From Clostridia bacterium (lineage in GTDB: Bacteria; Bacillota; Clostridia; Oscillospirales; CAG-272): a stretch of DNA of 64,000 bases. Within the stretch, counting starts at the first letter, position 1. Each line of letters begins with the position of its first letter. A program made the position numbers and the translations under genes. Where the stretch lies: assembly GCA_017483305.1 (NCBI GenBank), contig JAFULC010000055.1, positions 2,835 to 66,834 on the forward strand. The letters are read 5' to 3'. Below, one piece after another: positions 15,504 to 58,486 of the stretch. The notes under the pieces are model-generated. The model searched no databases and was not told the origin of the DNA. It saw only the letters and a program-made list of their open reading frames with translations.

Positions 15504-15506
15504 TTA

Positions 15507-17108: not shown

Positions 17109-17109
17109 A

Positions 17110-18075
17110 TTATCTTTCTCCCATTCTGATTCTAGGATCAATAAATCCGTAGCTGATATCGATTATGATACCCGAAAGCAGACTGATAGCGGTGTAGAAG
17201 ATACAGTCCATCATAAATACGTCGTAGTCTCGGCTGAAAATCGACTGAGTATAGAGCGCGCCAACGCCGGGGATGGAGAATATCTGCTCGATGATGAGCG
17301 AACCGCCAAGGATACCGACAAAGCTTCCCAGAATCGAGGGAAGGATCGGAACCATCGCGTTCTTGAGTGCGTGACGGGTGGTTGCCTGTGAGCGGGTAAG
17401 TCCCTTAGTGCGGGCAAGAAGCATATAGTCGGAGGTCAAGGTCTCGGTAAGCTCCGCTCTGGTGAAACGGCACAGGCCTGCGATCTGACCGAAGGAAAGT
17501 GCAAGGATCGGGGGGATCATACTGTGGAACATAGTCCAAGAGAACCAGGTTCCGCCCGCATCTGCGAGCGAGGAGATTACCGGCGGGAACCAGTCAAGCT
17601 TGAAATACAGGAAATACTGTACTAAGAAAGCATAGACGTAGCTTGGCACCGATACGAACAGTATGACCATAACGCTTATAAGATGGTCCTGCCACTTGTT
17701 CTTCTTGATAGCTGCATAGATACCGAAAAGAATTCCGAGAGGAACCGCAAACAAAAGCGAATACAGGTTTACAAGAACCGTAGGCAGAAGTCTGCCGACA
17801 AGAAGATCCCAAGCGGGAGCCGTCTTCTTGATTACCCATGAGGTTCCAAAATCAAATTCAGTGAAAATTCCCTTGAGGTATATACCGTACTGAACAAGCA
17901 AAGGCTCATCGTAGCCACGTGCGTTCCATATATCCTCAATCTGCTGCTTTTGAGCCTCGGTCGCACCCTCGGGAGGGGACATAGGCAACGCTCTTATGAG
18001 CACGAAGCATATCGTAGTGATACAGAATAATGCCACAAGCATCAGCAATATTCTTTTAAATATATACTTGATCAT
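17110..18075 (-). CDS. Opp-type ABC permease (OppB-like)
   Basis: 321 aa beginning MIKYIFKRILLMLVALF, with an ARTKGL motif. Start ATG 18075 with GAAAGG upstream. Confidence 0.85.
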   Translation of the reverse strand: MIKYIFKRILLMLVALFCITTICFVLIRALPMSPPEGATEAQKQQIEDIWNARGYDEPLLVQYGIYLKGIFTEFDFGTSWVIKKTAPAWDLLVGRLLPTVLVNLYSLLFAVPLGILFGIYAAIKKNKWQDHLISVMVILFVSVPSYVYAFLVQYFLYFKLDWFPPVISSLADAGGTWFSWTMFHSMIPPILALSFGQIAGLCRFTRAELTETLTSDYMLLARTKGLTRSQATTRHALKNAMVPILPSILGSFVGILGGSLIIEQIFSIPGVGALYTQSIFSRDYDVFMMDCIFYTAISLLSGIIIDISYGFIDPRIRMGER

Positions 18076-18126
18076 TTTAACTAACCTTTCAAAATTAGGT
18101 TTCTGATTTACCCATAAGGGCAACCT

Positions 18127-18202
18127 AACCTTGGGAAAATCGAGCCAAAGCCACACCGCACGCCTAACGGATCACTCGCTTTGACGCAATTTTCCCAAGG
18201 TT
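18127..18202 (-). other. 76-nt structured intercistronic element between the binding-protein and permease genes
   Basis: Perfect 14-bp inverted repeat aaccttgggaaaat / attttcccaaggtt enclosing a second 6-bp helix (caaagc/gctttg on the minus strand). Confidence 0.5.
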
Positions 18203-18289
18203 ATAAACAATGTATTACCATTTTTTATAGCTTTTCTTGGGTGATTGTCTGAGCAAATCATGCAAATTAAGAGGTCTTAAAATCGCAAA

Positions 18290-18317
18290 GTAATGGGAGA
18301 ATAAATCCTCCCATTAC
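18290..18317 (-). terminator. intercistronic hairpin / partial terminator after the binding-protein gene
   Basis: gtaatgggag-aataaatc-ctcccattac, a 10-bp stem with a weak U-tract on the minus strand. Confidence 0.5.
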
Positions 18318-18361
18318 CATGCGATGTTTTCAGATTTCTCTAAAATTATTTGCCTGCGGTA

Positions 18362-20962
18362 TTACTTGTAGTTAAGCTCTCCGCCCTGCTCTGCAACGTA
18401 TGCAGCCCATTCAGCATCATTGTAGTTGTAATCCATGATACGGAATCCGCCGAAGCCGTACATAATGTTGTACTCATCGGTGTAGTCCTCTACCTTGTAG
18501 GAGCTGAGTGAGCAAACGGTGGTAACTGCAAGAGGAATTCTGTAGAACTTAGCAAGGAATGCCTCTTCCATCTGAGCTGTGATAGCAAGCTTAACCTTGT
18601 TATCAGCGTTAGCGTATACGCCGGTACCGATCATGGAGTTACCCCATGCCTGCCAGGTCATAGTAACCTCCTCGCCCTCAACTACGAGAGTAAGGGTCTC
18701 GGTGGTAGGATCCCAACAACCAGCCTCGTTGATGTCGTACTGAGTAGGATCGGTGTAAACCTGGAAGTTACGGAAAGGATAGAACGCAGCGCCGCCCCAT
18801 GCACCGTAACCGATAGCATAGAGACCAGCAGCGGTATCGCCGTAACGGTCGTTGATGTTGCCGAGAGGCTCAAGAGTGATGGTGCCGAATCCGGTGCCCT
18901 CAACTGCTGCGTTGAGGTACTTCTGGATAAGCTCGCACTGCTTGGTGTCGTCCTCGGTGAGAGAGCCCTTTGCCCAACCGATCTGGATCTTGATTGCGGA
19001 GCCCTCGGTGTAAAGACCCTCTGCAACGAGCTCCTCGAATGCCTTGGTCATAAGAGCCTTAGCCTCGGTGAGGTTGTAGCCGGTGATGGAGTCGTAAGCA
19101 TCCTCGAGAGTCTCGTAGATCTTACCCTCACCGTACTCTACGCCGTAGAGGTTAACGATAGCCTGCATAGCCTCTTCAGACTTTCTGTAAGAGGAAGAAG
19201 GATCGTTGTAGATATCGTAGTGATAGAGGTGGTTCATAAGCGAGTACGCAGGAGTCCATGCCTGAGTAGCGGTTACGAAGTCTGCTCTATCGATTGCGAA
19301 GGACATAGCCTTACGGAAGTTGTAGTTGTTGAGAACTACGGAGAATGCGTTCTTACCCGAAGCATCGAGAGCCTTGAGGTTATCAAGGTTGGTGTGGAAG
19401 AAGAAGGACATAGTGTATGTCTCATCTACAACCTGGAGTCTCTCGGAAAGCTTATAGTCGTTAAGCTCAGCAGCAGTGGGAGAGTAAGACATAAGCTCAC
19501 CCTTAAGGAACTTCTGCTTTGCAACGTCCTCGGTCATAACGTCGATTACGATCTTGGTGGTGATGTACTGCTGGAGGTACTTGCCGTCAACAGTGAACTG
19601 AGTGAAGGAAACGAGCTTGCCGTCCTCGGTCTTTTCGAAGCCGTACCAGTTCTCGTTCTGCTCGTAAACAACCTGCTTGTTGTCCTCGAATACGGTCATC
19701 TTGTATGTACCGTAGGAGATGGAGGTCGCAAGAGAGGTCATGTAGTCGGTAACAACAAGTCCGTCTACCTCCTTCTTACCTGCCTCGTAAAGGCCCTCGT
19801 GAACGAGCCAGGTGTCGGTGCAGGAGGTGAGGAAGTAGTTGAAGTCGATTGCGGTGTCGCAAACGTAGAGGAAGCTGTAGTCGCCGGTCTTAACGAGACC
19901 AACGCATTCCCAGGTTGCGCCAACATTATCGTTAGCGGTGTAGAGAGCGAGGCAGTATGCAAGATCCTTGCCAACTTCAAAATAAGGACCGTAACCGATG
20001 CCGAGATAGTACTCGTATGCATCCTTAGCGGAGATCTCGTCTACAGGATTGCCATCTTCGTCAAGAAGCTTGTTGCCCTCTGCGTCAACAGCGAAGTAAA
20101 CGGTATCATCGTTCATAGGAAGCCACTGAGGACAATTCTCGCCAGCCTCGTTCTTATAGCCCTTGGTTCCCCAAAGCTCATAGATGTCGACGTAGATAGT
20201 TTCGCCTGCATCAACAGCAGCCTGGTTGGATTCGTACTTAGTAGCAACGCCTACATAGAAGCCCGCATCCTTAGAGTAGTAGTAGTCGAAACCACCTGCA
20301 ATTGCAGACTCGCCGGAGATGTAGAGGTTAGCTCTGTAGTTCTTCATGTCAGGGCTAAGAAGCTGCTGCATGGAGTAAACGTAGGAATCAGCATTGATGA
20401 TGGTGCCGTCTTCCCACTTAGCGTTGGGGTTGAGTGTGAACTCAAATACGTAACCGGACTTAACCTCTTCAGCGGTCTTGCCCTCAGGAAGAGTTACGTT
20501 GTACTTGGTAAGGAGGTCCTGCTTCTGAGCAGTAACGTCCTTGATAGCGGTTGCCATTTCGCCTACCCACTGGTAGAGACCTTCCTCGGTGTCAAGAGCC
20601 TCCATGGTTACAAAAGGAGAGGTAAGGTAACTCAGAATGGACTGGTCAGCATTGGTCTCCCATGCATGGGGGTTCCAGTTGGAACCGAGAGAAATAGCGT
20701 AGCTGTTGTAGGTGTAGTCGCCTACCTTAGCGGTAGGAAGAACTGCATCTGCGGGACGAACGGGAGCGATGAATTCGATCTTTTCGTCTTCTTCACCCGT
20801 GGTTTCGTCAGTGGTTTCATCGCCAACAGTGGTCTCATCATTGTTACCATTGTTAACGGTAGTTTCTTCTCCACCGTTATCGGGGTTCTGGCAAGCTGCG
20901 AGAGTTGCAACTGCTGCGAGCACCATAACAAGCGCGAGAAGAACTGAAATCAGTCTTTTCAT
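18362..20962 (-). CDS. family-5 (peptide/oligosaccharide) ABC substrate-binding lipoprotein, oversized at 866 aa
   Basis: Start ATG 20962 (MKRLISVLLALVMVLAAVATLAAC, a lipobox) with GGAGG upstream. A Thr/Glu/Asn-rich linker precedes an SBP_bac_5-like body. Confidence 0.8.
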   Translation of the reverse strand: MKRLISVLLALVMVLAAVATLAACQNPDNGGEETTVNNGNNDETTVGDETTDETTGEEDEKIEFIAPVRPADAVLPTAKVGDYTYNSYAISLGSNWNPHAWETNADQSILSYLTSPFVTMEALDTEEGLYQWVGEMATAIKDVTAQKQDLLTKYNVTLPEGKTAEEVKSGYVFEFTLNPNAKWEDGTIINADSYVYSMQQLLSPDMKNYRANLYISGESAIAGGFDYYYSKDAGFYVGVATKYESNQAAVDAGETIYVDIYELWGTKGYKNEAGENCPQWLPMNDDTVYFAVDAEGNKLLDEDGNPVDEISAKDAYEYYLGIGYGPYFEVGKDLAYCLALYTANDNVGATWECVGLVKTGDYSFLYVCDTAIDFNYFLTSCTDTWLVHEGLYEAGKKEVDGLVVTDYMTSLATSISYGTYKMTVFEDNKQVVYEQNENWYGFEKTEDGKLVSFTQFTVDGKYLQQYITTKIVIDVMTEDVAKQKFLKGELMSYSPTAAELNDYKLSERLQVVDETYTMSFFFHTNLDNLKALDASGKNAFSVVLNNYNFRKAMSFAIDRADFVTATQAWTPAYSLMNHLYHYDIYNDPSSSYRKSEEAMQAIVNLYGVEYGEGKIYETLEDAYDSITGYNLTEAKALMTKAFEELVAEGLYTEGSAIKIQIGWAKGSLTEDDTKQCELIQKYLNAAVEGTGFGTITLEPLGNINDRYGDTAAGLYAIGYGAWGGAAFYPFRNFQVYTDPTQYDINEAGCWDPTTETLTLVVEGEEVTMTWQAWGNSMIGTGVYANADNKVKLAITAQMEEAFLAKFYRIPLAVTTVCSLSSYKVEDYTDEYNIMYGFGGFRIMDYNYNDAEWAAYVAEQGGELNYK

Positions 20963-21243
20963 GATGAAAATCCTCCAAAAAAATTTTTTATGAGCCAAAG
21001 TGCAAAAAACAAACACTTCAAACTATGACCCATTATACCTCTTTTTTTGAAAATTGTCAAGAGCAACGGCAAAAATCTTTTTTGCTTTGCGCAAAAATGG
21101 GCATTTGGCACATCGAGTTGCAATTAATAAAAATGTTTTTTGTCATTTTTGCACAACTTTCTTGCATAAAAAGATGAATAAAGTTTCATTTTTCCAAACA
21201 AATTTCTTCAATAATTGAATATTTGCGGTTTTCAGAAAAATAT

Positions 21244-24916: not shown

Positions 24917-26197
24917 TTATTTTTTGATAACGTCGGTTCCAACGTACTTGCGAAGAACCTCGGGAACGGTTACGCTTCCGTCGGCGTTCTGGTTCTGCTC
25001 TACAAGTGCAGGAAGGATTCTCGACGTCGCAAGACCGGATCCGTTAAGAGTGTGGATGTATTCGATCTTGCCATTTGCACGTCTTACTCTCATCATTCCG
25101 CGTCTTGCCTGATAATCTCTTGCGTTGGATACGGAGCTGACCTCCTTGTAGCCGTCCATAGAGGGAATATTGATCTCAATGTCGTAGGTTCTCGCCATAG
25201 AAGCCGAGCAGTCGCCCGCCGCAAGCTTAACGGTTCTGAAATGGAAGCCAAGACCGCTTACAAGGTTTTCGGCCTTGGTTACAAGCTCATCAAACGCCGC
25301 ATCACTCTGCTCGGGCAGGGTGAACTGGAACATTTCGACCTTGTTGAACTGATGTCCGCGCACCATTCCGCGCTCGTCCGAGCGGTACGAGCCCGCCTCG
25401 CGACGGAAGCAGGGAGTGTAGCTGAACATCTTCTTCGGAAGGTCTGTTTCAGTGAGAATCTCTTTTCTGTAAAGGGATGCAAGCGCCGCCTCCGCGGTAG
25501 GAAGCATATAGTGAATTCTGTCGTCGGTGGGGTTTTCTATCTTGTAAACCTCATCTGCAAACTTGGGGAACTGTCCCGCGGTAACGCCACACTCATATTC
25601 AAGCATGTGGGGAGGAAGAATGAACTCGTAGCCATCGGAAATATGAGTGTCAATAAAGTAATTGAGCAAAGCCCACTCAAGACGCGCGCCCATTCCGCGA
25701 TAGATCCAGAAGCCCGAGCCTGCAAGCTTTGTTCCTCTTTCATAGTCGATAAGACCAAGCGCATTGCAAAGATCAACGTGGTTTTTAGGCTCAAAATCAA
25801 ACTTTCTGGGCTCGGAGAAGAAGCGAATAGACTCGTTATTCTCCTTTCCGCCGGGAAGAAGGTCTCTGTCGGGGAGGTTGGGAAGCCCAAGCATCCAGGA
25901 TGTCAGCTCTGTCTCAACGCCCTTGAGGATCTCGTCGTTCTCCTTTGCCTTTGCGCCAAGCGCTCTGGACTGCGCGAAGATCTCGGAGGGATCCTTTCCT
26001 TCCTTTTTATATTGAGGAATAAGCTTTGTGAGCTTATTCTGCTCCGCCTTGATAGCCTCAGTCTCGGTTATCAACGCTCTTCTTTTTGTGTCAAGCTCAA
26101 GGATCTTGGCAACGTCCTCTGCCGCATCCTTTCCTTTTGCCGCAAGTCTTTCAACGACTTCCGCAGGGTTTTCCTTTATATAATTTATATCAAGCAT
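24917..26197 (-). CDS. serS: seryl-tRNA synthetase
   Basis: N-terminal coiled-coil arm plus class-II core (FRREAGS, GSGLATSR). 426 aa. Confidence 0.95.
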   Translation of the reverse strand: MLDINYIKENPAEVVERLAAKGKDAAEDVAKILELDTKRRALITETEAIKAEQNKLTKLIPQYKKEGKDPSEIFAQSRALGAKAKENDEILKGVETELTSWMLGLPNLPDRDLLPGGKENNESIRFFSEPRKFDFEPKNHVDLCNALGLIDYERGTKLAGSGFWIYRGMGARLEWALLNYFIDTHISDGYEFILPPHMLEYECGVTAGQFPKFADEVYKIENPTDDRIHYMLPTAEAALASLYRKEILTETDLPKKMFSYTPCFRREAGSYRSDERGMVRGHQFNKVEMFQFTLPEQSDAAFDELVTKAENLVSGLGFHFRTVKLAAGDCSASMARTYDIEINIPSMDGYKEVSSVSNARDYQARRGMMRVRRANGKIEYIHTLNGSGLATSRILPALVEQNQNADGSVTVPEVLRKYVGTDVIKK

Positions 26198-26233
26198 TTT
26201 TCTTGTCCTTTCAATGATATGTTATGCGATTTA

Positions 26234-27121
26234 TCAGGAATTAAACAATCCCTTACCGCAGATAAGAGTAAGAAGCTCCTCGAGATCGGCATCATTATCA
26301 AACGTAAGCTCAACCGTCTTCTTCTTGGTCGTCTGATTGATCTTTACCTTTCTTCCGAGCTTATCCATAACTTTTCTTTCAAGGTCACGCATATAAACTC
26401 TTCTCTGTACCGACTCGTCGCCCGTGGATTTAAGGGTTTCAACGTCCTGCTCGGCAATCATTCGTCTTACGATCTTTTCAACCTCGCGCACAGAAAGATC
26501 TCTTTCATGCACCTTTTGAGCGAGATTTATCATCTGATCCTCGTCATCAAGACCAAGAATAGCTCTTGCATGACCGTTTGTGATCTTTCCTTCCTTTAAA
26601 AGAGAGAGCACCTCGTCAGGAAGATCAATAAGTCTGAGCATATTAGCTATCGCAGAGCGCGATTTGCCCACTTCTCTCGAAAGCTGCTCCTGAGTCAAGC
26701 CGAAACGGTCGACCAAAGCCTGATAAGCAAAGGCTTCTTCAACGGGATTAAGGTTTTCGCGCTGAACGTTTTCAACAAGCGCGATCTGCGCAACCTTAAG
26801 ATCATCTCCGTCCACCGTTATCGCGGGAATCTCCGAAAGACCCGCCATTTTGGCAGCTCTCCAACGGCGCTCGCCGGCAATTATCTCGTAAGTGCCAACA
26901 AAATCGGTATTTTCCCTGACAATTATAGGCTGAAGCACGCCGTGAATGGATATAGAATCAGCAAGAAGCTGCAGGCTTTCCTCGTCAAAATCCTTTCTGG
27001 GCTGGTCTCGTCTGGGTTCAATGTCGTTAATTCTTATTTTTGAAACAGAGTCTTTTTTGTCTTCGATCATATTATCGTCGAGAATCGAATAAAAATCTCT
27101 GCCAAGTCCTCCTCTTGCCAT
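26234..27121 (-). CDS. parB: chromosome partitioning protein ParB/Spo0J
   Basis: QPRKDFDEESLQLLADSISIHGVLQPIIV and GERRWRAA ParB boxes, plus an HTH (LTQEQLSREVGKSRSAIAN). Confidence 0.95.
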   Translation of the reverse strand: MARGGLGRDFYSILDDNMIEDKKDSVSKIRINDIEPRRDQPRKDFDEESLQLLADSISIHGVLQPIIVRENTDFVGTYEIIAGERRWRAAKMAGLSEIPAITVDGDDLKVAQIALVENVQRENLNPVEEAFAYQALVDRFGLTQEQLSREVGKSRSAIANMLRLIDLPDEVLSLLKEGKITNGHARAILGLDDEDQMINLAQKVHERDLSVREVEKIVRRMIAEQDVETLKSTGDESVQRRVYMRDLERKVMDKLGRKVKINQTTKKKTVELTFDNDADLEELLTLICGKGLFNS

Positions 27122-27138
27122 TGCAATTCTCCTTTATA

Positions 27139-27900
27139 TTATATTCTGGACGCAAGCTCTTTGGCAACCGACAGATACTCGTCCGCGCCCTTGCATCTCT
27201 TTTCGTGATAGTATACAGGCATACCAAAGCCGGGCGCCTCGGAAACCTTTACTCCCCTGGAGATCTTCGTCTTGAAAAGCTTGTCCGCATAATGCTTATT
27301 AAGCTCGTTTATAACCTGAAGCGACAGCAACAGTCTGGAATTATACATCGTTACAAGTATTCCGGTTATATTAAGCGAATTGTTGTAGTTCGCCTTTATT
27401 CTATTAATAGTAACAGTCAACTGTGAAAGACCCTCGAGCGCATAGAATTCGCACTGCATAGGGATGATGATTCCGTCGCTCGCAACCATAGCGTTTACTG
27501 TAAGCATGCTCAGAGAAGGAGGACAATCGACGATTATATAGTCGTAGTCATCCTTTATTGTTGCCAAAGCATCCTTCATTATTCTTTCAGCGCCGTCTTC
27601 TTGATACAAATTGTACTCCGCACCGGCAAGCGCAATGTTTGCAGGAATGATGCTGAGGTTTTTGTATTCAGTCTCAAGGATCGCATCTTTTGCCTCAATA
27701 TCCCCGAGAAGTATGTCGTTTATAGAGTTTTTTAAGCCTTTTTTTGATATTCCAACGCCGCTTGTAGCATTTCCCTGGGGGTCAAGATCTATCAAAAGAA
27801 CCTTATATCCCAGGATTCCCAACGAGGCCGCAACGTTGACCGCGGATGTGGTTTTTCCAACTCCGCCCTTCTGATTAGAGAAAGAAATTATTTTTCCCAA
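27139..27900 (-). CDS. parA: chromosome partitioning ATPase ParA/Soj
   Basis: Deviant Walker A NQKGGVGKTT. 253 aa. TTG start at 27900 with AGGAGG upstream. Confidence 0.95.
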   Translation of the reverse strand: MGKIISFSNQKGGVGKTTSAVNVAASLGILGYKVLLIDLDPQGNATSGVGISKKGLKNSINDILLGDIEAKDAILETEYKNLSIIPANIALAGAEYNLYQEDGAERIMKDALATIKDDYDYIIVDCPPSLSMLTVNAMVASDGIIIPMQCEFYALEGLSQLTVTINRIKANYNNSLNITGILVTMYNSRLLLSLQVINELNKHYADKLFKTKISRGVKVSEAPGFGMPVYYHEKRCKGADEYLSVAKELASRI

Positions 27901-28029
27901 ATCGGTTTCCTCCTAGATTTTTGTGTGTTTGAATACATTATACTATACTTTTGCAACTTTTGCAAGAGGTTTTGTTAAAATTATTTTGAAATCCGCCAGA
28001 TTTGTCAACTTTTTAAGCGTCGGGCACTT

Positions 28030-28045
28030 TGTTTCACGTGAAACA
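28030..28045. promoter_or_regulatory. parS site (perfect consensus)
   Basis: TGTTTCACGTGAAACA, a 16-bp palindrome matching the Firmicutes parS consensus. Confidence 0.85.
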
Positions 28046-28115
28046 CGTCCACCCGAGCCTTACGTTCGAGGTTGTTTCGCGTGAAGCGCGCCCATGTGAG
28101 CTTCGCGCTCAAGGT

Positions 28116-28131
28116 CGTTTCACGTGAAACG
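28116..28131. promoter_or_regulatory. parS-like site (14/16)
   Basis: CGTTTCACGTGAAACG, a perfect palindrome differing only at the outermost positions. Confidence 0.65.
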
Positions 28132-28198
28132 CTATCTTGGAAATTATCCTTACGCCACCGCTTCACACGAAACGCCCCAAGAAGCCACCTCCGCGCAC

Positions 28199-28214
28199 TG
28201 TTTCACGTGAAACA
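28199..28214. promoter_or_regulatory. parS site (perfect consensus)
   Basis: TGTTTCACGTGAAACA. Confidence 0.85.
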
Positions 28215-28237
28215 CCCAAGAAACCACCTCCGCGCAC

Positions 28238-28253
28238 TGTTTCACGTAAAACA
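28238..28253. promoter_or_regulatory. parS site (15/16)
   Basis: TGTTTCACGTAAAACA. Confidence 0.75.
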
Positions 28254-28260
28254 CCACGCA

Positions 28261-28288
28261 AAAAGCCGCTTGTTACAGCGGCTTTTTT
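28261..28288 (-). terminator. terminator overlapping the rsmG stop codon
   Basis: aaaagccgct-tgttac-agcggctttt. The stop codon lies in the loop, and a U-run follows on the minus strand. Confidence 0.6.
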
Positions 28289-28998
28289 ACTATTTGGGCA
28301 TATTTTCTCGGATACTGCGTAGGGGTTTGGCTCGTTTTCTTATAAATCCTGATTTCTCGATCGATCTCCGTGCCGTCAAGTGCCAGCTTGTGCAAGAATG
28401 TCTCGGTCGGTGTCGCCCCAAGCTTTTTGATTCCATGCTCGGCTTCGCTCGCTTCGTCTATGCCTTTTTCGGATTTCATTGCTATAAACAGCCCACCAAC
28501 CTTAACAAAAGGAACGCACAGCTCCGACAAAACATTGAGCCTCGCAACAGCTCTGCTTGTGCAAACATCGAAGCTTTCGCGTTTGATTTCCGCATATTCT
28601 TCGGCCCTTGCACATATTGCATCAAGATTGCAGAGACCAAGCTTTTCCTTCGCCGTCAATACAAAATTGATCTTTTTTCCTGTGCTGTCAAGCGCAGTCA
28701 CTCGGGCGTCTTCGCGAAGGATCGCGATCGGCACAGACGGGAATCCGGCTCCACAGCCTACGTCCAAAACGAACGAATTGTCAGGAATGTGTTTGACAAC
28801 AGCCGCCGAATCCACGAAGTGCTTTAGTATTATGCCTTCTTCATCCGTAATTGCGGTAAGGTTTGTGTGCTTGTTCGTCTCTATGAGCAGATTCGCAAAG
28901 TCACAGAGCAGGTTTGCCGATCTTTCGCTGAGCAAATCCTTCATTTCGTTTTTTTCAAAGGCTTTATACAGTAAATCAATAAATGCGTTTCTTTCCAT
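28273..28998 (-). CDS. rsmG: 16S rRNA (guanine527-N7)-methyltransferase RsmG/GidB
   Basis: DVGCGAGFPSVPIA SAM motif, 241 aa, conserved position after mnmG. Confidence 0.9.
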   Translation of the reverse strand: MERNAFIDLLYKAFEKNEMKDLLSERSANLLCDFANLLIETNKHTNLTAITDEEGIILKHFVDSAAVVKHIPDNSFVLDVGCGAGFPSVPIAILREDARVTALDSTGKKINFVLTAKEKLGLCNLDAICARAEEYAEIKRESFDVCTSRAVARLNVLSELCVPFVKVGGLFIAMKSEKGIDEASEAEHGIKKLGATPTETFLHKLALDGTEIDREIRIYKKTSQTPTQYPRKYAQIVKKPL

Positions 28999-29005
28999 AC
29001 AAATC

Positions 29006-30889
29006 TCACTTTATTCCAAGATAAATAAGCAAAACAGAGATGTCAGCAGGGTTAACTCCGCTTATTCTGGATGCTTGACCCACGGTTAAAGGTCTTATCT
29101 TATCGAGCTTTTGTGCCGCCTCGATCCTCAATCCCTTTATTTCAAGATATTCAAGGTCTCTTGGCAGAGGCTTAGCCTCTATTTTTTCATATTTTTTGAC
29201 CTCGGCAAGCTGCCTTTTTACGTATCCGGCGTATTTTATGTCGGTGCTTGCAGTCAAAACAACGTCCTTTGGCAAAATTGGGCGGTCGACGTCAAGCTCC
29301 GCAATCTGATCATAATCAAAGTCGGGTCTCCTTATAAGATCGGCAAGCGAAACGCCCGATTTTGCAGGGTCTTGTCCTTTATTTACAAGGAATTCCGAGG
29401 CCTTTTCTTTGGAGATATACGTCGTCTCAAGACGTTCCTTTTCCTTTGCGATCGCATTTCTTTTTGCAAGGAATTTTTCATATTGTCTGTCACTCACAAG
29501 CCCTGCGCGCCTTCCGATCGGGGTAAGTCTTTCATCAGCGTTGTCCTGGCGCAAAAGCAACCTATATTCCGAGCGCGAGGTCATCATGCGGTAAGGCTCG
29601 TTAGTTCCTTTTGTTGTCAAGTCATCGATAAGCGTTCCGATATAGCTTTCCGACCTGCTAAGAACAACAGGATCTTCGCCCTTAGATCTCAACGCGGCGT
29701 TCATTCCGGCGATCAAGCCCTGCGCGGCAGCCTCCTCGTATCCCGAGGTTCCGTTGAACTGTCCTGCGCCGTAAAGACCCGAAACCCCTTTAAATTCAAG
29801 GGTTGCATAGAGCTGCGTGGGGTCTATGCAGTCATATTCGATCGCATACGCATATCTCATTATCTCGGCATTAGCAAAGCCGTCGAGCGAGCGCAGCATT
29901 TCGTACTGAACGGAGGTCGGCAGAGAAGTCGAAAAGCCCTGAATATACATCTCTTCAGTGTCCTCGCCAACCGGCTCGACGAAAAGCTGATGCCTTTCTT
30001 TGTCGGCAAATCTGACCAATTTGTCCTCTATCGACGGGCAATATCTCGGTCCCGTTCCGTGTATCTGACCCGAGTACATCGCCGAACGGTGAATGTTGTC
30101 ACGTATTATCTTGTGCGTTTGCGCGTTAGTATATACGATATAGCACGGAACATCTGTTCTGTTTTCAAAAAGAGCAGTATCTGTTTGCCACGAATAAGGC
30201 GTACATTCTTTCTCGCCCTCCTGAATCTCAAGCTGAGAGAAATCAATCGTGCTTTTTTTGACTCGTACGGGAGTTCCCGTCTTGAATCTCATCAGCCTTA
30301 TGCCGTTTTCGATCAGGGAATTTGAAAGCCGCTTCGCATCAAGAAGACCGTCAGGGCCTGCGGGATAGTTAACGTCACCCACGAATATTCTGCCGTTGAG
30401 AAAGGTTCCTCCGCAGATTATTGCCGCCTCGCAGCCCCAGATCTCTCCAAGGCTTGTCTTTACACCTACAATCCTTTTAGTATAAGGACTTTCAGCGCTT
30501 TCTTCTGTGATGATCTCGACGATCTCGGCTTGTATAAGGCGGAGATTGGGCGTCTTTTCGATCACCGATTTCATTATCTGCTGATACTTTCTTCTGTCTG
30601 CCTGAACGCGTTTGGAGTGTACCGCCGCGCCCTTGCCGAGATTCAACGTCCTCGACTGCAAAGTAACAAGGTCCGCAGAACGTCCCATCTCACCGCCAAG
30701 CGCATCGATCTCGTAAACCAGGTGTCCCTTCGCCGTGCCTCCGATAGACGGATTACACGGCATATTTGCAATACTGTCAAGCGACATAGTGAACAAAACC
30801 GTGTCCACGCCCATTCTCGCCGAAGCGAGCGCGGCTTCAACGCCCGCGTGTCCCGCACCGACTACAGCAACCTGTGTTTTAAGCTCCAT
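29006..30889 (-). CDS. mnmG: tRNA uridine-5-carboxymethylaminomethyl modification enzyme MnmG/GidA
   Basis: VVGAGHAGVEAALASARMG FAD motif, GPRYCPSIEDK. 627 aa. Confidence 0.95.
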   Translation of the reverse strand: MELKTQVAVVGAGHAGVEAALASARMGVDTVLFTMSLDSIANMPCNPSIGGTAKGHLVYEIDALGGEMGRSADLVTLQSRTLNLGKGAAVHSKRVQADRRKYQQIMKSVIEKTPNLRLIQAEIVEIITEESAESPYTKRIVGVKTSLGEIWGCEAAIICGGTFLNGRIFVGDVNYPAGPDGLLDAKRLSNSLIENGIRLMRFKTGTPVRVKKSTIDFSQLEIQEGEKECTPYSWQTDTALFENRTDVPCYIVYTNAQTHKIIRDNIHRSAMYSGQIHGTGPRYCPSIEDKLVRFADKERHQLFVEPVGEDTEEMYIQGFSTSLPTSVQYEMLRSLDGFANAEIMRYAYAIEYDCIDPTQLYATLEFKGVSGLYGAGQFNGTSGYEEAAAQGLIAGMNAALRSKGEDPVVLSRSESYIGTLIDDLTTKGTNEPYRMMTSRSEYRLLLRQDNADERLTPIGRRAGLVSDRQYEKFLAKRNAIAKEKERLETTYISKEKASEFLVNKGQDPAKSGVSLADLIRRPDFDYDQIAELDVDRPILPKDVVLTASTDIKYAGYVKRQLAEVKKYEKIEAKPLPRDLEYLEIKGLRIEAAQKLDKIRPLTVGQASRISGVNPADISVLLIYLGIK

Positions 30890-40950: not shown

Positions 40951-41025
40951 GGCCCGTTGGTCAAGCGGTTAAGACACGGCCCTTTCACGGCTGTAACATG
41001 GGTTCGAGTCCCGTACGGGTCACCA
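40951..41025 (+). tRNA. tRNA-Glu (UUC)
   Basis: GGCCCGTTGGTCAAGCGGTTAAGAC...CTTTCAC...GGTTCGAGTCCCGTACGGGTCACCA, close to the Bacillus-type tRNA-Glu as I recall it, with encoded CCA. Confidence 0.9.
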
Positions 41026-41504: not shown

Positions 41505-41996
41505 ATGAACAAGCAAGAAATATTTAATGGTTTATGGACGATTACCAAAGAAAAGCACGACGCTTGTAACGCGGATGCAGCTTCAGTAGATAAAAGCCAT
41601 CCTACGGAGCGAGGTACTTTGCAATTAAAGTCCGGAATTTATAATGTTGCGATAGCGGCAGGACTTATATCCGGAACAGATCAGGCACTTGAATTGATGA
41701 GCAAAAGATTTAAGAATTTAATCAAACATTTTCCCGAAATTGCAAACTATTATTACGCATTGCCCGAAGATCAAAAAGAACTTATGGAGATTGCGCTCTA
41801 CCCCGAAGTATTCATGAGGGTTAACTTTTATAACACCTATAATACCGATCTTGAGCAAGCAGAAAAGGACGGAAATCCGCAAATAATCTTCAAGGCAAAA
41901 ATCAAAAAAGAAGTGTTGGACGATATTTTGAATATGTGGCGAGATTACAGAATTGAAAAAGATTTATTTGTTTTTGCATTTGACGAGGAGGTATGA
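41505..41996 (+). CDS. hypothetical protein (163 aa), no recognisable domain
   Basis: ATG with AAAGGTGG upstream. AT-rich relative to flanking genes. First gene of a tightly packed operon. Confidence 0.6.
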   Translation: MNKQEIFNGLWTITKEKHDACNADAASVDKSHPTERGTLQLKSGIYNVAIAAGLISGTDQALELMSKRFKNLIKHFPEIANYYYALPEDQKELMEIALYPEVFMRVNFYNTYNTDLEQAEKDGNPQIIFKAKIKKEVLDDILNMWRDYRIEKDLFVFAFDEEV

Positions 41997-41997
41997 T

Positions 41998-42486
41998 ATG
42001 GGGAATTCACGTTTTTTTGAAATTGCGCTTGAAATGATAAATACAGAAACAAAAAAGTTGGAGAACTTTTGTGATGTGTTAGATAAGGATCCAGTTGCAA
42101 AGAAAAATAAAATTGCAGAATACAAATGCGCAAAATACAGATATGCCGGAGCAACAAATGTATGGTGTAGGTTCTTTCACAGCCATCGAGTAGCCGGAAG
42201 AAACGCAGAAACACATTATTTAATTCCTCAATTGAACGATATTTTTATTCTAATACCGGAATATGTAGCACTATATGAAAATGCTCCTGATTGTGAAAAG
42301 CAAGATTATGCGTTGTACTATGGAACCGTTGCATTTGCCGATTCAGAGATTGCGGAACTTAAGGCAAAGTTTGAAAATGCTACCGATTGGCAAAAGATAG
42401 AACTTGAGGAACGCATTGGCGGCTTGGAATTTGCCAAAGAATGTCTTGACGAGGCTTGGCAAAGACGAAAGGACGTGATCGCGTGA
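41998..42486 (+). CDS. hypothetical protein (162 aa), no recognisable domain
   Basis: ATG 41998 lies 1 nt after the previous stop, with GAGGAGG 6 nt upstream. The ORF-track start 41953 would overlap the previous gene and has no SD. Confidence 0.6.
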   Translation: MGNSRFFEIALEMINTETKKLENFCDVLDKDPVAKKNKIAEYKCAKYRYAGATNVWCRFFHSHRVAGRNAETHYLIPQLNDIFILIPEYVALYENAPDCEKQDYALYYGTVAFADSEIAELKAKFENATDWQKIELEERIGGLEFAKECLDEAWQRRKDVIA

Positions 42487-43016
42487 AAGAAAAACTTGAA
42501 CTTTTAAAGCTTCTTGCCGATCAAACGCGCCTTGAAATTCTCAACATTCTTTTGAAAGAAGATTCTTACGTTGAAAAAATCGCTTGCGAGCTGTCTCTAA
42601 CTCCGGCAACCATTTGCTATCACCTCAAAAAAATGGAGTCGGCAGGCGTGGTCAATTGCTCTCGCTCGCAATTCTATATCATCTACTCTCTTAACCGCGA
42701 TATTTTTGAAAAGCCGCTTTATGAGCTGATCAAAAAGGATGACGTGGTAATTGATACCGAGGAAAAATACAAAAAAGAGGTCATTTCCAATTTCTTTAAG
42801 TACGGCAGGCTGACACAGATTCCCACACAACGCAAAAAACGAGAGATCGTATTGTTTGAGATACTAAAGCAGTTTGAAATAGACCGAGAATATGGCGAAA
42901 AAGAGGTCAATGAGATCATTTTGCGCTATCACGAGGATTTTTGTACGATCAGACGTGAAATGATTGCATTCGGTATGATGACCCGAGATCACGAGATATA
43001 TAAGCGAGTAAAATGA
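42483..43016 (+). CDS. ArsR-family winged-helix regulator with DUF2087-like C-terminal domain
   Basis: LLKLLADQTRLEILNILLKEDSYVEKIACELSLTPATICYHLKKMESAGVV is an ArsR HTH. GTG 42483 overlaps the previous stop (GTGA). TTG 42456 is an alternative start. Confidence 0.7.
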   Translation: MKEKLELLKLLADQTRLEILNILLKEDSYVEKIACELSLTPATICYHLKKMESAGVVNCSRSQFYIIYSLNRDIFEKPLYELIKKDDVVIDTEEKYKKEVISNFFKYGRLTQIPTQRKKREIVLFEILKQFEIDREYGEKEVNEIILRYHEDFCTIRREMIAFGMMTRDHEIYKRVK

Positions 43017-49585: not shown

Positions 49586-50353
49586 TCAGAATCTTATTCT
49601 TGAGATCTTCGTCATTTTCGTCCCGTCGGTCTCAAAAATGACGGCATCGGACTTTATTTCTCCGTCCGCAACAATAAATTGAGACGGCATATGCATTCTC
49701 ATCTTGCGAAGCACACGCTCGCTGTCGGTTCCAAGAATTCCGTTTACAGGACCGGTCATTCCAAGATCGGTGACGTAGGCGGTGCCCCCGGGCAATATCT
49801 GACAGTCCGAAGTCGGAACGTGAGTGTGTGTGCCGAAGATCATATCGATCCTTCCGTCGAAAACTCGTGCCATCGCGTATTTTTCCGAGGTCGCCTCGGC
49901 GTGAAAATCGAGCAGGGAAAGATCGTATTCGCCCTCCTCGCGCGCAAGTATGTATTCGATCGCCTCAAAGGGATCGGCAAGCGGCTCCATAAAGGCAACG
50001 CCCTGCGCGTTCATGCAGAGAAGCCTGTATCCGCAAATGTCCACGGTCGTGTACGAGCAACCGGGCGCGTTTCCCGGGTAGTTTGCGGGTCTGATGATCT
50101 TGTCGGGGTTGTCGTCAAGAAAATTATACAGATCGCGCTTCGACCAGGTGTGATTTCCCATTGTGATAAGGTCCACGCCCGAATCAAGTATCTTTTGGGC
50201 ATCGGATGCGCCAAGACCGTGTATTTCGGTGGCGTTTTCGCCGTTAGCAACAACGAAATCAATGCCGAGCTTACGCCGCAGACTCCACAAATTCTGTTTC
50301 AAATGCTCTATCGCCCGAACACCGACGATATCGCCTATTGCAAGTATCTTCAT
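49586..50353 (-). CDS. ymdB: YmdB-like metallophosphoesterase (TIGR00282 family)
   Basis: MKILAIGDIVG, VVANGENA, GNHTW, GTHTHVPT motifs. 255 aa. Confidence 0.9.
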   Translation of the reverse strand: MKILAIGDIVGVRAIEHLKQNLWSLRRKLGIDFVVANGENATEIHGLGASDAQKILDSGVDLITMGNHTWSKRDLYNFLDDNPDKIIRPANYPGNAPGCSYTTVDICGYRLLCMNAQGVAFMEPLADPFEAIEYILAREEGEYDLSLLDFHAEATSEKYAMARVFDGRIDMIFGTHTHVPTSDCQILPGGTAYVTDLGMTGPVNGILGTDSERVLRKMRMHMPSQFIVADGEIKSDAVIFETDGTKMTKISRIRF

Positions 50354-50373: not shown

Positions 50374-51765
50374 TTATTTTCCTACGCAGAAGTTAGCAAA
50401 TATCCGCGAGACTATGTCCTCAGAAACGGTCCTGCCGTCAAGCTCGCCGAGTACAGAGAGGGTGTTTTCGATCTCGGCACAGCAGATCTCAAGAGGGAGG
50501 TCTGCCGAAATCGCATTGATCGCGATCTCAAGTGCCTCAATAGCCGATCCAACCGATGCCGCTTGACGCGCGTTAGATATGATAGCATCGCTGCCCGTGT
50601 CGAGATCGTTGTCGATATATAATTGCTCTATCAAAAAAGCAAGCCTGTCGAACCCGTCGCCCGACTCCGCAGAGACCTGACAAATATGATCGAATTTCGA
50701 CAAAAGACCGTTAACCTCGGGCAATATTCCAAGATCGCTCTTGTTGACTATAGCTACCTTGACCCCACTCAGATTATTCAGATATTCAACAAAATCCATA
50801 TCCTTTTCATCGGGTACTCGACTTCCGTCAAACACCGCCAATATAAGCTCCGCAGACTCTGCCGTCTGGCGAGCTCGGTCTATTCCGATCCTTTCAACCG
50901 CGTCTCCCGATTCTCGAAGGCCCGCGGTGTCGGAAAGACGAAGAATAACTCTGCCAAGCTTTGCGGTCTCGGTCAGCACGTCGCGCGTCGTTCCCTCGAT
51001 ATCGGTAACTATTGCCGCATCTCTACCGACTATTCGATTGTAAAGCGAGCTTTTGCCCGCGTTGGTTCTGCCTAAAATTACGGTCGGTATACCGCTCATA
51101 ACGGCGCGACCCGTAGAATAGGTTTTAGAAAGCCTTTTGAGTCGGTCTATATTTTTGATCGCAACCGCCAACGCTTCCTCGTGGTTGATCTCGGCAAGAT
51201 CCTCGTCGGGATAGTCGATATGAGCGTAAATTGCCGCAAGCACGTTGCAAAGAGAATCGTATATCTCTCCGACCTCACCCGACAAAACGCCCTTCATTCC
51301 CGAACGAGCAAGCATTATTTGCTCGTCGGTCTGTGCCTCGAGAAGATCGCCCAGCGCCTCCGCGCTCGTAAGACTCATTTTGCCGTTTATAAATGATCTT
51401 TTCGTAAACTCTCCGGGCAAAGCCATCCTCGCCCCCGCCATCAGCAGAGCGGACAGCACCTTTTGTGTCACAAGCACACCGCCATGACAGGAGATCTCCA
51501 CAGTATCCTCGCCCGTAAACGAGCTCGGCGCACGGAAGCAGACGGCGATTCCGTCGTCTATCGGTATCCTTTTGCCGTCTTTTGTCTCGAAAATGCCGCC
51601 GTATACCGCCCTTGAGCTTGCGATTTCGCCAAGATGCTTGCCATTTTTGGGCTCAAACACTCTTGAAGCGACACTGATCGCATCCTCACCCGAAACGCGA
51701 AGCACGGCAATGCCGCCCTAGCCGTAAGGCGTGCTGATAGCGGCTATCGTATCAAGCTGATTCAT
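50374..51765 (-). CDS. mnmE: tRNA modification GTPase MnmE, reading frame interrupted by one in-frame TAG at codon 16
   Basis: ATG 51765 with GGAG upstream. The frame reads MNQLDTIAAISTPYG-TAG(51720-51718)-GGIAVLRVSGEDA, and continues through G1 GRTNAGKSS to the C-terminal FCVGK. Under the standard code the ORF restarts only at GTG 51705, so the gene would be annotated as a pseudogene or as N-terminally truncated. Confidence 0.85.
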
Positions 51766-51845
51766 AGAAATCTCCATTCCGCCGCTTGCGGCGGCATCAA
51801 TCTGTTTAAGCTCGGAAAAAGAAGTTTTCCTTGCTCCTCTTAACG

Positions 51846-51870
51846 ACAAAAGGCGGCTTGCGCCGCCCTC
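51846..51870 (-). terminator. rho-independent terminator after the HPr-like gene
   Basis: Minus strand ggcggc-gcaa-gccgcc followed by ttttg. Confidence 0.7.
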
Positions 51871-55174: not shown

Positions 55175-55204
55175 TTGACAACGGACTAACTTATCGTGTA
55201 TAAT
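55175..55204 (+). promoter_or_regulatory. SigA-type promoter of rpmH
   Basis: TTGACA 55175-55180, 18 nt, TATAAT 55199-55204. Implies a leader of about 100 nt. Confidence 0.6.
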
Positions 55205-55311
55205 ATAGGATGTCATTGTGTAAAAGCGTAAAAATAGCCTACGTGCTGTTTCGGTTCGCAAGTGCGAGCTGTGACAAACGCTTCCGATTATTACTTAAGG
55301 AGGTGCAGCAA

Positions 55312-55446
55312 ATGCTCAGAACTTATCAACCCAAGAAGCGTCAGAGAAAAAAGGAGCATGGCTTCAGAAAGAGAATGAAGACCTCGGACGGCAGAGCCGT
55401 TTTGAAGAGACGCCGTGCAAAGGGCAGAAAGAGACTGACCCACTGA
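55312..55446 (+). CDS. rpmH: 50S ribosomal protein L34
   Basis: [44 protein letters not shown], with AAGGAGGTG upstream. The ORF-track start 55210 is rejected. Confidence 0.95.
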
Positions 55447-55644
55447 TCTCATTGTTTAAAACAACTTGTTTTTGACAAATTGGCAAAATAAAAACCGCCG
55501 ATGACCGTTTCATTTCAAGATGATCTTGTATGTATGGGCATCGGGGTTTTTAGCGTTAAAGCAAAATCAAAAAATCGCCGAGCAAAATCGGCACAAAACT
55601 GACGGAAGCAACACACAAGCACAAGCCAAAAAAGAGGTAAGTCA

Positions 55645-56040
55645 ATGAAATTCCCTGCAATAAAAGAGCATCATCTTTACAATAAAGCGTATCGCTCGGG
55701 CAAGCATTTCTTCGGCAGATACGTCTGCGTGTACGTCTTAAAGGATCTTCACGCCAAAAGGCTCAGAAAGGAGCACCCTCAAAAGCTTCTCGTAAACCGA
55801 TTGGGACTTTCGGTCTCCAAGAAGGTCGGGGGAGCAGTGCGCCGTAACCGTGCAAAGCGCATCATAAGAGCCGCGTATGCCGCAAACAAGGATAGCTTGA
55901 AAAAGGGATTTTTAATAGTCATCAGCGCAAAGCCCGAGATAGTCGGCAAAAAGAGCGTTGATATAGCAAGGGAATTGAAATATGCATTTTCCAAGCTTGA
56001 AATGCTTGACGACAGCCTCAAGAAAACCGAACGAAAATGA
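55645..56040 (+). CDS. rnpA: ribonuclease P protein component
   Basis: Basic 131-aa protein with the RNR motif (AVRRNRAKRIIR). Confidence 0.9.
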   Translation: MKFPAIKEHHLYNKAYRSGKHFFGRYVCVYVLKDLHAKRLRKEHPQKLLVNRLGLSVSKKVGGAVRRNRAKRIIRAAYAANKDSLKKGFLIVISAKPEIVGKKSVDIARELKYAFSKLEMLDDSLKKTERK

Positions 56041-56393
56041 AATACGTCTGTATAGCACTCGTCCGCTTTTACCGTAAATTCCTGTCTCCACTTAAACGAA
56101 GACCGTGCTGTAGGTTCACACCTTCATGCTCAGCCTATGCTCTCGAAGCATTTCAGAAACGAGGCTTTTTTGTGGGATTTATCCTGACGGTCGGCCGCAT
56201 CGCAAGATGCCAGCCCTTGTGTCCGGGAGGATATGACCCCGTTCCGAAAACGGGATTCCGCAACGTAAAAATCGGTCGGAACAGAGAACACGTATATGAC
56301 AGCGGCTATATGGCAGAAAAAAACTTCGTGTTTTTTTACGATCTGCCCTACGAAGACCGCAAGGAGAAGTCCAAAAAAGAAAAAACAAATTGA
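56037..56393 (+). CDS. yidD: membrane protein insertion efficiency factor YidD with a C-terminal extension of about 40 aa
   Basis: FYRKFLSPLKRRPCCRFTPSCSAYALEAF...GGYDPVP. ATGA overlap with rnpA. Confidence 0.85.
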   Translation: MKYVCIALVRFYRKFLSPLKRRPCCRFTPSCSAYALEAFQKRGFFVGFILTVGRIARCQPLCPGGYDPVPKTGFRNVKIGRNREHVYDSGYMAEKNFVFFYDLPYEDRKEKSKKEKTN

Positions 56394-56408
56394 GAGGACT
56401 AATTCGTA

Positions 56409-57809
56409 ATGAATAAGAAAAAAACAATCGCTAAAATTTTGCCCAAGATAGCGTTACTTCTGGCAATGGTGACGATCCTGGCAGTCGTGCTTTCGGGATG
56501 CGGAAGCCAGACTGTCATCAACACCACGACCCCCGAGAAGGGTTGGGCAGATACCGAGGTCAACCTCACCGCAGACTCCGGCTTTCTCAACAAGATCCTT
56601 TCCTGGATCGGTATATTCCTCGGCTGGATAACCCGCGTAATGCCCGCAAACAGCTACGTTCTTACGCTGTTTATCTTCGCTATCATTATGGAGCTCATTC
56701 TTCTGCCCTTCTCTATCAATCAGCAGAAGAACACCATCAAGCAGTCGATGCTTCGTCCCAAGGAAATGGCTATCCGCAAAAAGTATGCGGGCAGAAACGA
56801 CCAGGCGACCCAGCAGAAGATGTCTCAAGAGGTTCAGGAGCTTTACCAGAAGGAAAATTACAACCCCATGTCGGGTTGTCTGCCCCTTCTTATCCAGCTC
56901 CCGATCATCATGATCCTTTACTGGTTGGTAATCGACCCTATCCTCTATATGTTCAACGGCTCTGCGGAGTTCAAGAACGTTCTGTACGCGTATATCACCA
57001 CCGCGGCAGACAACGGCGGTCTTGGTATGAAGCTCAGCTCCACCAACGGCTCTATCGAAATACTCAGTAAGATCAACGAGCTCGGAATCGAAGCGTTCGA
57101 GGGAATAAAGACCTTCTGCGCAAACGGCGAAGCAGTATTTGCTCAGATCGAGGACATCGCCACTCAATCGCTCAACTTCAACATCGGACCCGTAAATCTC
57201 GGAATCACACCCAGCTTTAATCCTGCCGACAAGGTACAGTATTGGCTGCTGGTGATCCCTGTTCTTACCTTCGTTTCCTACTTCTTCAGCATGAAGATCT
57301 CGAGAAAGCTGTCCTATCAGCCTGGTCAGGACTCGGGCGACAAGCAGATGGCTTGCTCAAATAAGATGATGGATTTCACAATGCCCGCAATGAGCGTGTG
57401 GATGACCTTCATCGTGCCCGGTGCGGTTGGTATCTACTGGATATTCAAGAGCGTGCTCGGCGTTGTAAAGCAGGTTATCATGAGCAAGGCTATGCCTCTG
57501 CCCAAGTTCACCGAGGAGGACTACAAGGCGGCTGAAAGAGAGCTTCTCGGCAAGCAGCCCAAGAAGGTCCAGAAATCCGAGAACGTAGGAAAGGTCCGCT
57601 CGCTCCACCACATCGACGATGAGGATTACGACGAGCACGGCAACTACGTTCCCAAGGTTGAGGAAACTCCCGAGGAGACCGTAGAGGAACAGACGACCAA
57701 GCTTCCCGAAAACAGCATGACCGAAGGCGCGTCCTTAAAGGACGATTCCGACAAGGCAGAAACCAAAAAGAAATCCTCCCTGTTCGGCAAAAAAGATAAA
57801 AAAGACTGA
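56409..57809 (+). CDS. yidC: membrane insertase YidC/SpoIIIJ family, lipoprotein form with a long charged C-terminal tail
   Basis: Lipobox LSGC, a 60-kDa insertase core (NPMSGCLPLLIQLPI), and about 100 aa of acidic then basic tail. Confidence 0.9.
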   Translation: MNKKKTIAKILPKIALLLAMVTILAVVLSGCGSQTVINTTTPEKGWADTEVNLTADSGFLNKILSWIGIFLGWITRVMPANSYVLTLFIFAIIMELILLPFSINQQKNTIKQSMLRPKEMAIRKKYAGRNDQATQQKMSQEVQELYQKENYNPMSGCLPLLIQLPIIMILYWLVIDPILYMFNGSAEFKNVLYAYITTAADNGGLGMKLSSTNGSIEILSKINELGIEAFEGIKTFCANGEAVFAQIEDIATQSLNFNIGPVNLGITPSFNPADKVQYWLLVIPVLTFVSYFFSMKISRKLSYQPGQDSGDKQMACSNKMMDFTMPAMSVWMTFIVPGAVGIYWIFKSVLGVVKQVIMSKAMPLPKFTEEDYKAAERELLGKQPKKVQKSENVGKVRSLHHIDDEDYDEHGNYVPKVEETPEETVEEQTTKLPENSMTEGASLKDDSDKAETKKKSSLFGKKDKKD

Positions 57810-57835
57810 CACTAATCAAAAACGGAGACATTAAC

Positions 57836-58486
57836 GTGAATAAAGAAATTATTACAACAGGAAAAACCATCGACGACGCCGTCGCGGCAGCTGTTGCCGA
57901 GCTTGGCGTTCCGTCCAGAGAAAATATTGAATACACCGTACTTGAGGAGCCCAAGAAGGGACTTTTCGGAATCGGAGCAGCTCCCGCAAAGATCTCCGCG
58001 AAGGCAGTATTCAAGGGTGAGCTCTTCGCTCTCAACTTCATCAACCAGCTCGTTAAGGATATGAACCTTGACGTAACCGTTGAAATGAAGGACGTAGAGG
58101 GCTCCGACAAGGACTGCAAGCTTATCGACATCACCGGCGAGGGCGCAGGCGCACTCATCGGTCACCACGGTGACACGCTTGACAGCATCCAGTATCTTGC
58201 AAACCTTGCGGCAAACAAGAGAGTTAACGGAGTAAAGCCCGACTACGTAAAGATCACCGTAGACGCAGAGAACTACCGCGCGAAGAGAGAGAACACCCTT
58301 CGCGAGCTTGCAAGAAGAATGGCAGATAAGGTTCTTAAGCAGAAGAGAAGCGTTATGCTCGAGCCTATGAATCCTTACGAGAGAAGAATCATCCACTCCG
58401 AGATCCAGAACATCGAGGGTGTTTCGACCAACTCCATCGGTTCCGAGAACAACCGCAAGATCGTTATCTATCTCGAAGAAAAGTAA
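57836..58486 (+). CDS. jag: Jag/KhpB RNA-binding protein (Jag_N, KH, R3H)
   Basis: GTG start with GGAG upstream. R3H region ERRIIHSEIQ. Conserved position after yidC. Confidence 0.9.
   Translation: MNKEIITTGKTIDDAVAAAVAELGVPSRENIEYTVLEEPKKGLFGIGAAPAKISAKAVFKGELFALNFINQLVKDMNLDVTVEMKDVEGSDKDCKLIDITGEGAGALIGHHGDTLDSIQYLANLAANKRVNGVKPDYVKITVDAENYRAKRENTLRELARRMADKVLKQKRSVMLEPMNPYERRIIHSEIQNIEGVSTNSIGSENNRKIVIYLEEK

Follow-up and report, generated by a model that had tools for sequence, protein, structure and literature searches.

The GTPase MnmE (TrmE) takes part in carboxymethylaminomethyl synthesis at U34 of tRNAs, with MnmG (GidA) as its obligate partner. Genetics in Escherichia coli and Bacillus subtilis showed that cells without MnmE lack xm5U34 modification and survive, but at a cost; the gene is dispensable in model bacteria. 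Members of the family – such as those of T. maritima (PDB 1XZP), C. tepidum (3GEE) and E. coli – share a three-part architecture, the G1–G4 motifs and a C-terminal CVGK, and each of those we examined is encoded by an unbroken frame.

The mnmE gene described here, located within a window of 64,000 nucleotides (the whole stretch of DNA that was analysed), differs from these members in that its frame is broken by an in-frame TAG at codon 16. Two kinds of described system come closest to this arrangement. With programmed stops and recoding – the frameshift site of prfB, pyrrolysine-encoding UAG codons and TAG-recoded phages – the locus shares only that a conserved gene carries a stop in frame close to its 5′ end: programmed stops are kept among relatives and recoding affects many genes, whereas the mnmE TAG is absent from every relative and the other genes of the window contain no in-frame TAG. 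With ordinary amber loss-of-function alleles, or young pseudogenes, it shares a one-base change from sense to stop, a gene that is otherwise intact and under purifying selection, and restriction to one assembly. We regard it as very probable that the codon is an isolated AAG→TAG lesion at Lys-16, read under the standard code with no unusual code behind it, and that it reflects either a null mutation of very recent date or an error in the assembly or in the base itself. The type of lesion is ordinary and already known, and nothing marks it off from other nonsense alleles, save that short of reads it can be confused with a consensus error.

The gene occupies positions 50374–51765 of the minus strand and comprises 463 codons followed by TAA, with codon 16 as its sole interruption. 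Sequence and translation together place its start at ATG 51765–51763 (minus strand), preceded after a 6-nt spacer by the Shine–Dalgarno (SD) motif GGAG (51775–51772, minus strand), whose duplex with the anti-SD is predicted at −6.4 kcal/mol. From this start the frame reads MNQLDTIAAISTPYG, meets TAG at 51720–51718, resumes with GGIAVLRVSGED and then stays open throughout, ending in FCVGK and TAA 50376–50374. The central observation of the initial annotation, a TAG at codon 16 of an otherwise open 463-codon frame, is thereby borne out. Some automatic gene calls prefer an upstream start at ATG 51777, giving a protein of 467 residues that begins MEISMNQ; this choice has no bearing on the TAG.

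The intergenic region upstream has features of its own. Between a gene for a 76-residue HPr-like protein and mnmE lie two GC-rich hairpins with GCAA loops (51781–51797 and approximately 51845–51866, both on the minus strand). One, with TTTTGT after it, resembles a terminator, although it was not picked up by a consensus scan; the other, GCCGCCGCAAGCGGCGG, directly adjoins the SD of mnmE and lacks a following T run. Upstream of the HPr-like gene, 52202–52174 (minus strand) is a perfect TTGACA-17-TATAAT promoter match.

The identification of the gene as mnmE, likewise made at the outset, is upheld by several comparisons. With residue 16 entered as X, the product scores 321.9 bits against the NCBIfam equivalog TIGR00450 (cut-off 252.6), and 346.6 against NF003661, which is below that model's cut-off of 380. 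Pfam places TrmE_N at residues 6–129 (profile positions 1–117 of 117), MnmE_helical at 132–460 and MMR_HSR1 at 229–341, all above gathering scores, so that the order typical of the family – an N-terminal TrmE_N followed by a helical domain with an inserted G domain – is preserved. The translation contains the motifs GRTNAGKS (G1), DTAG (G3), NKSD (G4) and the C-terminal CVGK, and it aligns end to end with the sequence of the T. maritima TrmE crystal structure (1XZP; E = 2.7e-92). Because the product passes TIGR00450 and three Pfam models, and because a database protein of 463 residues (P0001) is identical to it at all residues but 16, where it has Lys, the frame is no chance ORF. Judged by its sequence, the gene is unambiguously a member of the MnmE family by descent, though one whose frame TAG interrupts and which, as written, is a disrupted allele. 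The gene for its partner, mnmG (29006–30889, minus strand), is intact, scoring 819 bits against TIGR00136 (cut-off 525) and matching Pfam GIDA.

What the codon was before it became a stop can be read directly from related assemblies, which derive from Illumina metagenomes of the ruminant gastrointestinal tract (Xie et al. 2021, PMC8199421). Contigs that encode P0001 were compared base by base with the window. In three of them – L001 (7,590 bp), L006 (9,026 bp) and L008 (3,222 bp), the last from an independent Logan assembly of run SRR12529367 – the single mismatch is position 51720, and in a fourth (L002) this mismatch is accompanied by two more elsewhere. AAG is also found in the two contigs of a 98%-identical sister strain that cover codon 16 (L003 and L004), so that AAG stands in each of the six further metagenome assemblies, from this strain or the 98%-identical one, that span the codon, as it does in an 86%-identical relative, the metagenome-assembled genome RGIG6414 from sheep rectum (L005). 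In every other assembly, then, codon 16 (51718–51720, minus strand) is AAG for Lys, the ancestral codon, and the window differs by A→T at 51720 on the coding strand. Pooling of the near-identical loci gives two or more other assemblies at 23,686 positions of the window, and at only one of these, 51720, does the window stand apart from all of them. A search with a 29-mer in which the mutated base was replaced by N gave no match in metagenome contigs and, among genome contigs, RGIG6414 alone, again with AAG.

The annotation had pointed out that TAG lies one substitution away from a sense codon, and AAG in the sister assemblies is just such a codon. Of the three origins it proposed, a recent nonsense mutation and a sequencing error both stand, and read-through of UAG is strongly disfavoured by the sisters' AAG. 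Its proposal that sister strains with a sense codon, combined with normal use of TAG as a stop, would mark an isolated lesion finds its first half in the six AAG assemblies; the second half holds in part, as TAG does end one gene of this strain and yet is strikingly rare as a stop.

The annotation had also held that the TAG sits at a variable position of the protein, which is true of the family at large but not of this clade, where the position is invariantly Lys, encoded by AAG. Among the 120 best homologues (70–100% identity), at least 117 have Lys at the site; of the remaining three, two are fragments without the N-terminus and one has a long N-terminal extension and was left unscored. In an alignment of 31 homologues nearly all positions from D5 to G18 are invariant, namely D5, T6, I7, A8, A9, S11, P13, Y14, G15, K16, G17 and G18. 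More distant metagenomic MnmE loci show Lys (20), Asn (20), Arg (15), Ala (1) or Gln (1) at the site and in no case a stop, and T. maritima (1XZP) has Lys. Nei–Gojobori dN/dS ratios of the window gene are approximately 0.11 against the sister strain (L003), 0.07 against L010 and 0.09 against L017; mnmE is therefore maintained by selection in the clade, where it is under strong purifying selection.

Whether the T at 51720 exists in the organism is a separate question, and we put the chance that it is a real mutation at about even. A real mutation and a consensus error can be separated by the reads only, not by the sequence alone. The artefact reading, a sub-case of the isolated lesion, supposes that the organism has AAG and that the T arose in sequencing, in assembly (for example, along the path of a minority variant), in polishing or at a later step of data handling, and it would mean that there is no biology in the codon; we consider it a serious contender, though somewhat short of an even chance. 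It draws on the AAG found in all other assemblies of the strain, on the strong purifying selection on mnmE and on the state of the pathway, mnmE having no second lesion and mnmG being intact. It draws also on the fact that the truncated product of 443 residues, with either Val or Met as its first residue, has no exact match among the 153 billion gene positions of the collection searched. Against it stands the quality of the sequence: apart from a 30-base length difference to two contigs (L013 and L016), the window matches independent assemblies base for base elsewhere and is therefore not error-prone, and three other single-assembly differences resemble natural polymorphisms. Nonsense alleles, moreover, do occur in this population, and the known dispensability of mnmE in model bacteria speaks for a real mutation as well. 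Of all the single-base changes that mnmE can undergo, approximately 3.3% produce a stop.

The nonsense allele just mentioned, a second ordinary example from the same population, lies in the gene for a CoA-disulfide reductase/rhodanese (CoADR-RHD), which lies outside the window, approximately 200 bp to its left. In one contig (L014; ERZ28018951 k141_679702, at approximately 964–966), GGA has become TGA in the active-site loop of the rhodanese domain, turning CQSG into CQS followed by a stop, and three other assemblies have GGA at this codon. The three single-assembly differences are those between the window and the one contig covering the positions concerned (L009). They consist of a G/T polymorphism at 41008 in the T-loop of tRNA-Glu(TTC) (40951–41025, plus strand) and, at 32681 and 41570, of one Ile/Leu exchange in an ABC ATPase and one Asn/Lys exchange in a small ORF; all three look neutral. 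The length difference to L013 and L016 is a 30-nt indel in the gene for an extensin-like repeat protein (1162–2634, minus strand), whose product has 470, 480 or 490 residues among assemblies of the same strain. L013 itself, from sample SAMN15829983 of the ruminant gut study, has not one base mismatch with the window.

A different proposal is that this organism makes full-length MnmE from the gene as it stands, UAG being reassigned or read through with the help of a suppressor or pyrrolysine tRNA, or owing to a weak or lost RF1. Recoding of this kind was examined by comparing stop-to-stop ORFs under alternative stop sets and listing every frame bounded by TAA or TGA that contains TAG. Among the approximately 53 real genes of the window, none besides mnmE has an in-frame TAG. 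The other candidates were rejected: TAG-containing frames opposite rsmG, jag, holA and pepF are antisense shadows, with Pfam matches on the other strand only, and the rest lie in a 5′ leader or in the frame of the preceding gene, only a few codons before the genuine start. At 21025, for example, the TAG has a promoter-like TTGACA/TATAAT pair on one side and, on the other, ATG 20962, the genuine start of a lipoprotein gene.

The machinery that recoding would call for was looked for as well. No tRNA with a CUA anticodon was seen in the 64-kb window and approximately 40–110 kb of related loci, where tRNA-Met(CAT) and tRNA-Glu(TTC) are the only tRNAs and an Rfam scan yielded nothing else; nor did Pfam reveal pyrrolysine-related genes among the annotated ORFs. 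TAG also serves as a terminator in the same strain, as three assemblies (L013, L015 and L016) show CoADR-RHD ending in TAG. The alignment of this protein to PDB 3ICR reaches within 2 residues of the C-terminus of the chain, so TAG ends the gene at the usual C-terminus of the family and is therefore a working stop in this organism. Where UAG is reassigned, TAG appears at conserved sense positions in many genes, the same TAG is kept in close relatives and TAG is unused as a terminator; here it interrupts a single gene, all relatives have AAG and CoADR-RHD uses it as a stop, although such stops are very rare.

Two points nonetheless favour read-through: the near-absence of TAG stops from the window and two relatives, compared with a baseline of 17%, and the fact that the ancestral residue is Lys, tRNA-Lys being a near-cognate reader of UAG. 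However, assemblies that are 99.96–99.99% identical to the window have AAG, so that recoding at the level of the lineage does not explain the codon. Taken together with the tests on TAG described above, this leaves very little room for recoding, and we hold that the organism uses the standard bacterial code. Read-through or reassignment that yields full-length MnmE seems to us highly improbable, and read-through of any kind is, at the very most, a slight prospect.

The rarity of TAG as a stop codon is an observation in its own right. TAG ends none of the approximately 53 real genes in the window (1–64000), none of 18 in a 90% relative (L010, 1–21392) and none of 17 in a 68% relative (L019, 1–21389), whereas the same crude ORF caller, applied to the surroundings of mnmE in distant bacteria, finds TAG at 17% of stops (83 of 488). 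The lineage uses TAG for at most one in approximately 60 genes. Published surveys (PMC3549826) describe TAG frequency as independent of GC content and TAG as a universally suboptimal stop codon in bacteria. A usage near 1–2% would sit at the low extreme, and the verdict on the mnmE codon would be unchanged by it. Given this near-absence it stays conceivable that termination at UAG is weak throughout the lineage, comprising the species and its 90% and 68% MnmE relatives: RF1 activity might be low and the codon on its way to becoming unassigned, in which case AAG→TAG could be tolerated, near-cognate Lys, Gln or Tyr tRNAs supplying a working MnmE. We rate this as the faintest of the readings considered here. 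The nearly unused terminator is the only item of this analysis that is perhaps worth more work.

A last way in which the gene might retain a product is a new start of translation downstream of the stop. Bacterial genes with an early nonsense codon offer classical cases of such restarts, lacI among them. The in-frame starts 3′ of the TAG are GTG at codon 21, GTG at codon 36 and ATG at codon 109, and the first of these (51703–51705, minus strand), 12 nt past the stop, is indeed the earliest possible restart, as the initial annotation had claimed. An SD-like sequence, UAGGGCGG (51713–51720, minus strand), takes in the stop codon itself and, in the predicted duplex, ends 6 nt from GTG 51705; the duplex with the anti-SD is predicted at −7.2 kcal/mol, compared with −6.4 for the native mnmE site. 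Low-level termination–reinitiation at GTG 51705 is plausible, since the pairing predicted for UAGGGCGG and the anti-SD is comparable in strength to that of the native site and restarts of this kind have precedent.

The protein made in this way would probably be inactive. It would keep 443 residues and lack residues 1–20, including the conserved DTIAAISTPxGxGG of the N-terminal dimerisation/folate domain, and the Pfam comparison shows that positions 1–16 of the 117 in the TrmE_N profile would be missing. Inactivity is expected because no other part of the N-terminal dimerisation/folate-binding domain is as conserved as the stretch that is lost. A structural model adds little on this point: AlphaFold2, run with an alignment of 31 sequences, gave a mean pLDDT of 67, with residues 1–17 below 50, which is too poor for an argument about the N-terminus or the first β-strand.

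If the mutation is real, reinitiation at GTG 51705 might conversely provide enough of the shortened MnmE to keep function, making the allele nearly neutral. The short distance from stop to GTG, the pairing of UAGGGCGG at least as good as that of the native site and the classical precedents are all in keeping with such a rescue. The lost profile positions, however, include twelve residues that are invariant in the 31 homologues, and no homologue we checked begins at codon 21, two shorter ones being fragments that start much further in. We consider functional rescue by a restart very unlikely.

On the preferred reading of an isolated nonsense lesion, a single A→T private to this assembly would have turned Lys-16 of mnmE from AAG into TAG. 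Translation from ATG 51765 would then halt after 15 residues, leaving a null or severely hypomorphic allele, and MnmE would be absent or present in trace amounts, which a restart at GTG 51705 or rare near-cognate read-through could supply. In such a cell the tRNAs for Lys, Glu, Gln, Leu, Arg and Gly would be expected to lack the xm5U34 modification. The lesion may also have a polar effect on the ymdB-like gene downstream (49586–50353). Provided that the base is real, the mutation would be a very young loss of function in one strain or sample; there is no decay elsewhere in mnmE or in mnmG. Phase variation was considered and rejected, as the site contains no repeat or homopolymer, and a literature search for natural nonsense alleles of mnmE returned irrelevant matches only.

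If the mutation is real, it joins the young loss-of-function alleles that segregate in populations of gut bacteria, this one in a gene for tRNA modification that cells can lose at a cost and still survive. If it is an artefact, it shows how one wrong consensus base can pass for recoding. In practice, an in-frame stop calls for a comparison with near-identical assemblies before read-through is invoked.

Several further features of the window deserve mention. The genes usually associated with the replication origin are split and rearranged (24917–30889, minus strand, and 55200–58486, plus strand): serS-parB-parA-rsmG-mnmG form one group on the minus strand, mnmE stands by itself on that strand at a distance of 20 kb, and rpmH-rnpA-yidD-yidC-jag are on the plus strand. 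No dnaA was found among the annotated ORFs of the window, and the GC-skew profile of the window has no single clear switch.

An operon for an Opp-type peptide ABC transporter (13302–21016, minus strand) encodes unusually long components: an ATPase of 733 residues, in which a large insert splits the ABC domain, a permease of 544 residues and a solute-binding lipoprotein of 866 residues. Just downstream of the tRNA-Met/tRNA-Glu pair, the region of lowest GC content in the window (0.42; 41505–43016, plus strand) holds three consecutive ORFs of approximately 160–190 residues with no Pfam match. This stretch of small ORFs is identical in L009 up to the end of that contig (window position 42594), and the short ORFs are therefore not frameshift artefacts.
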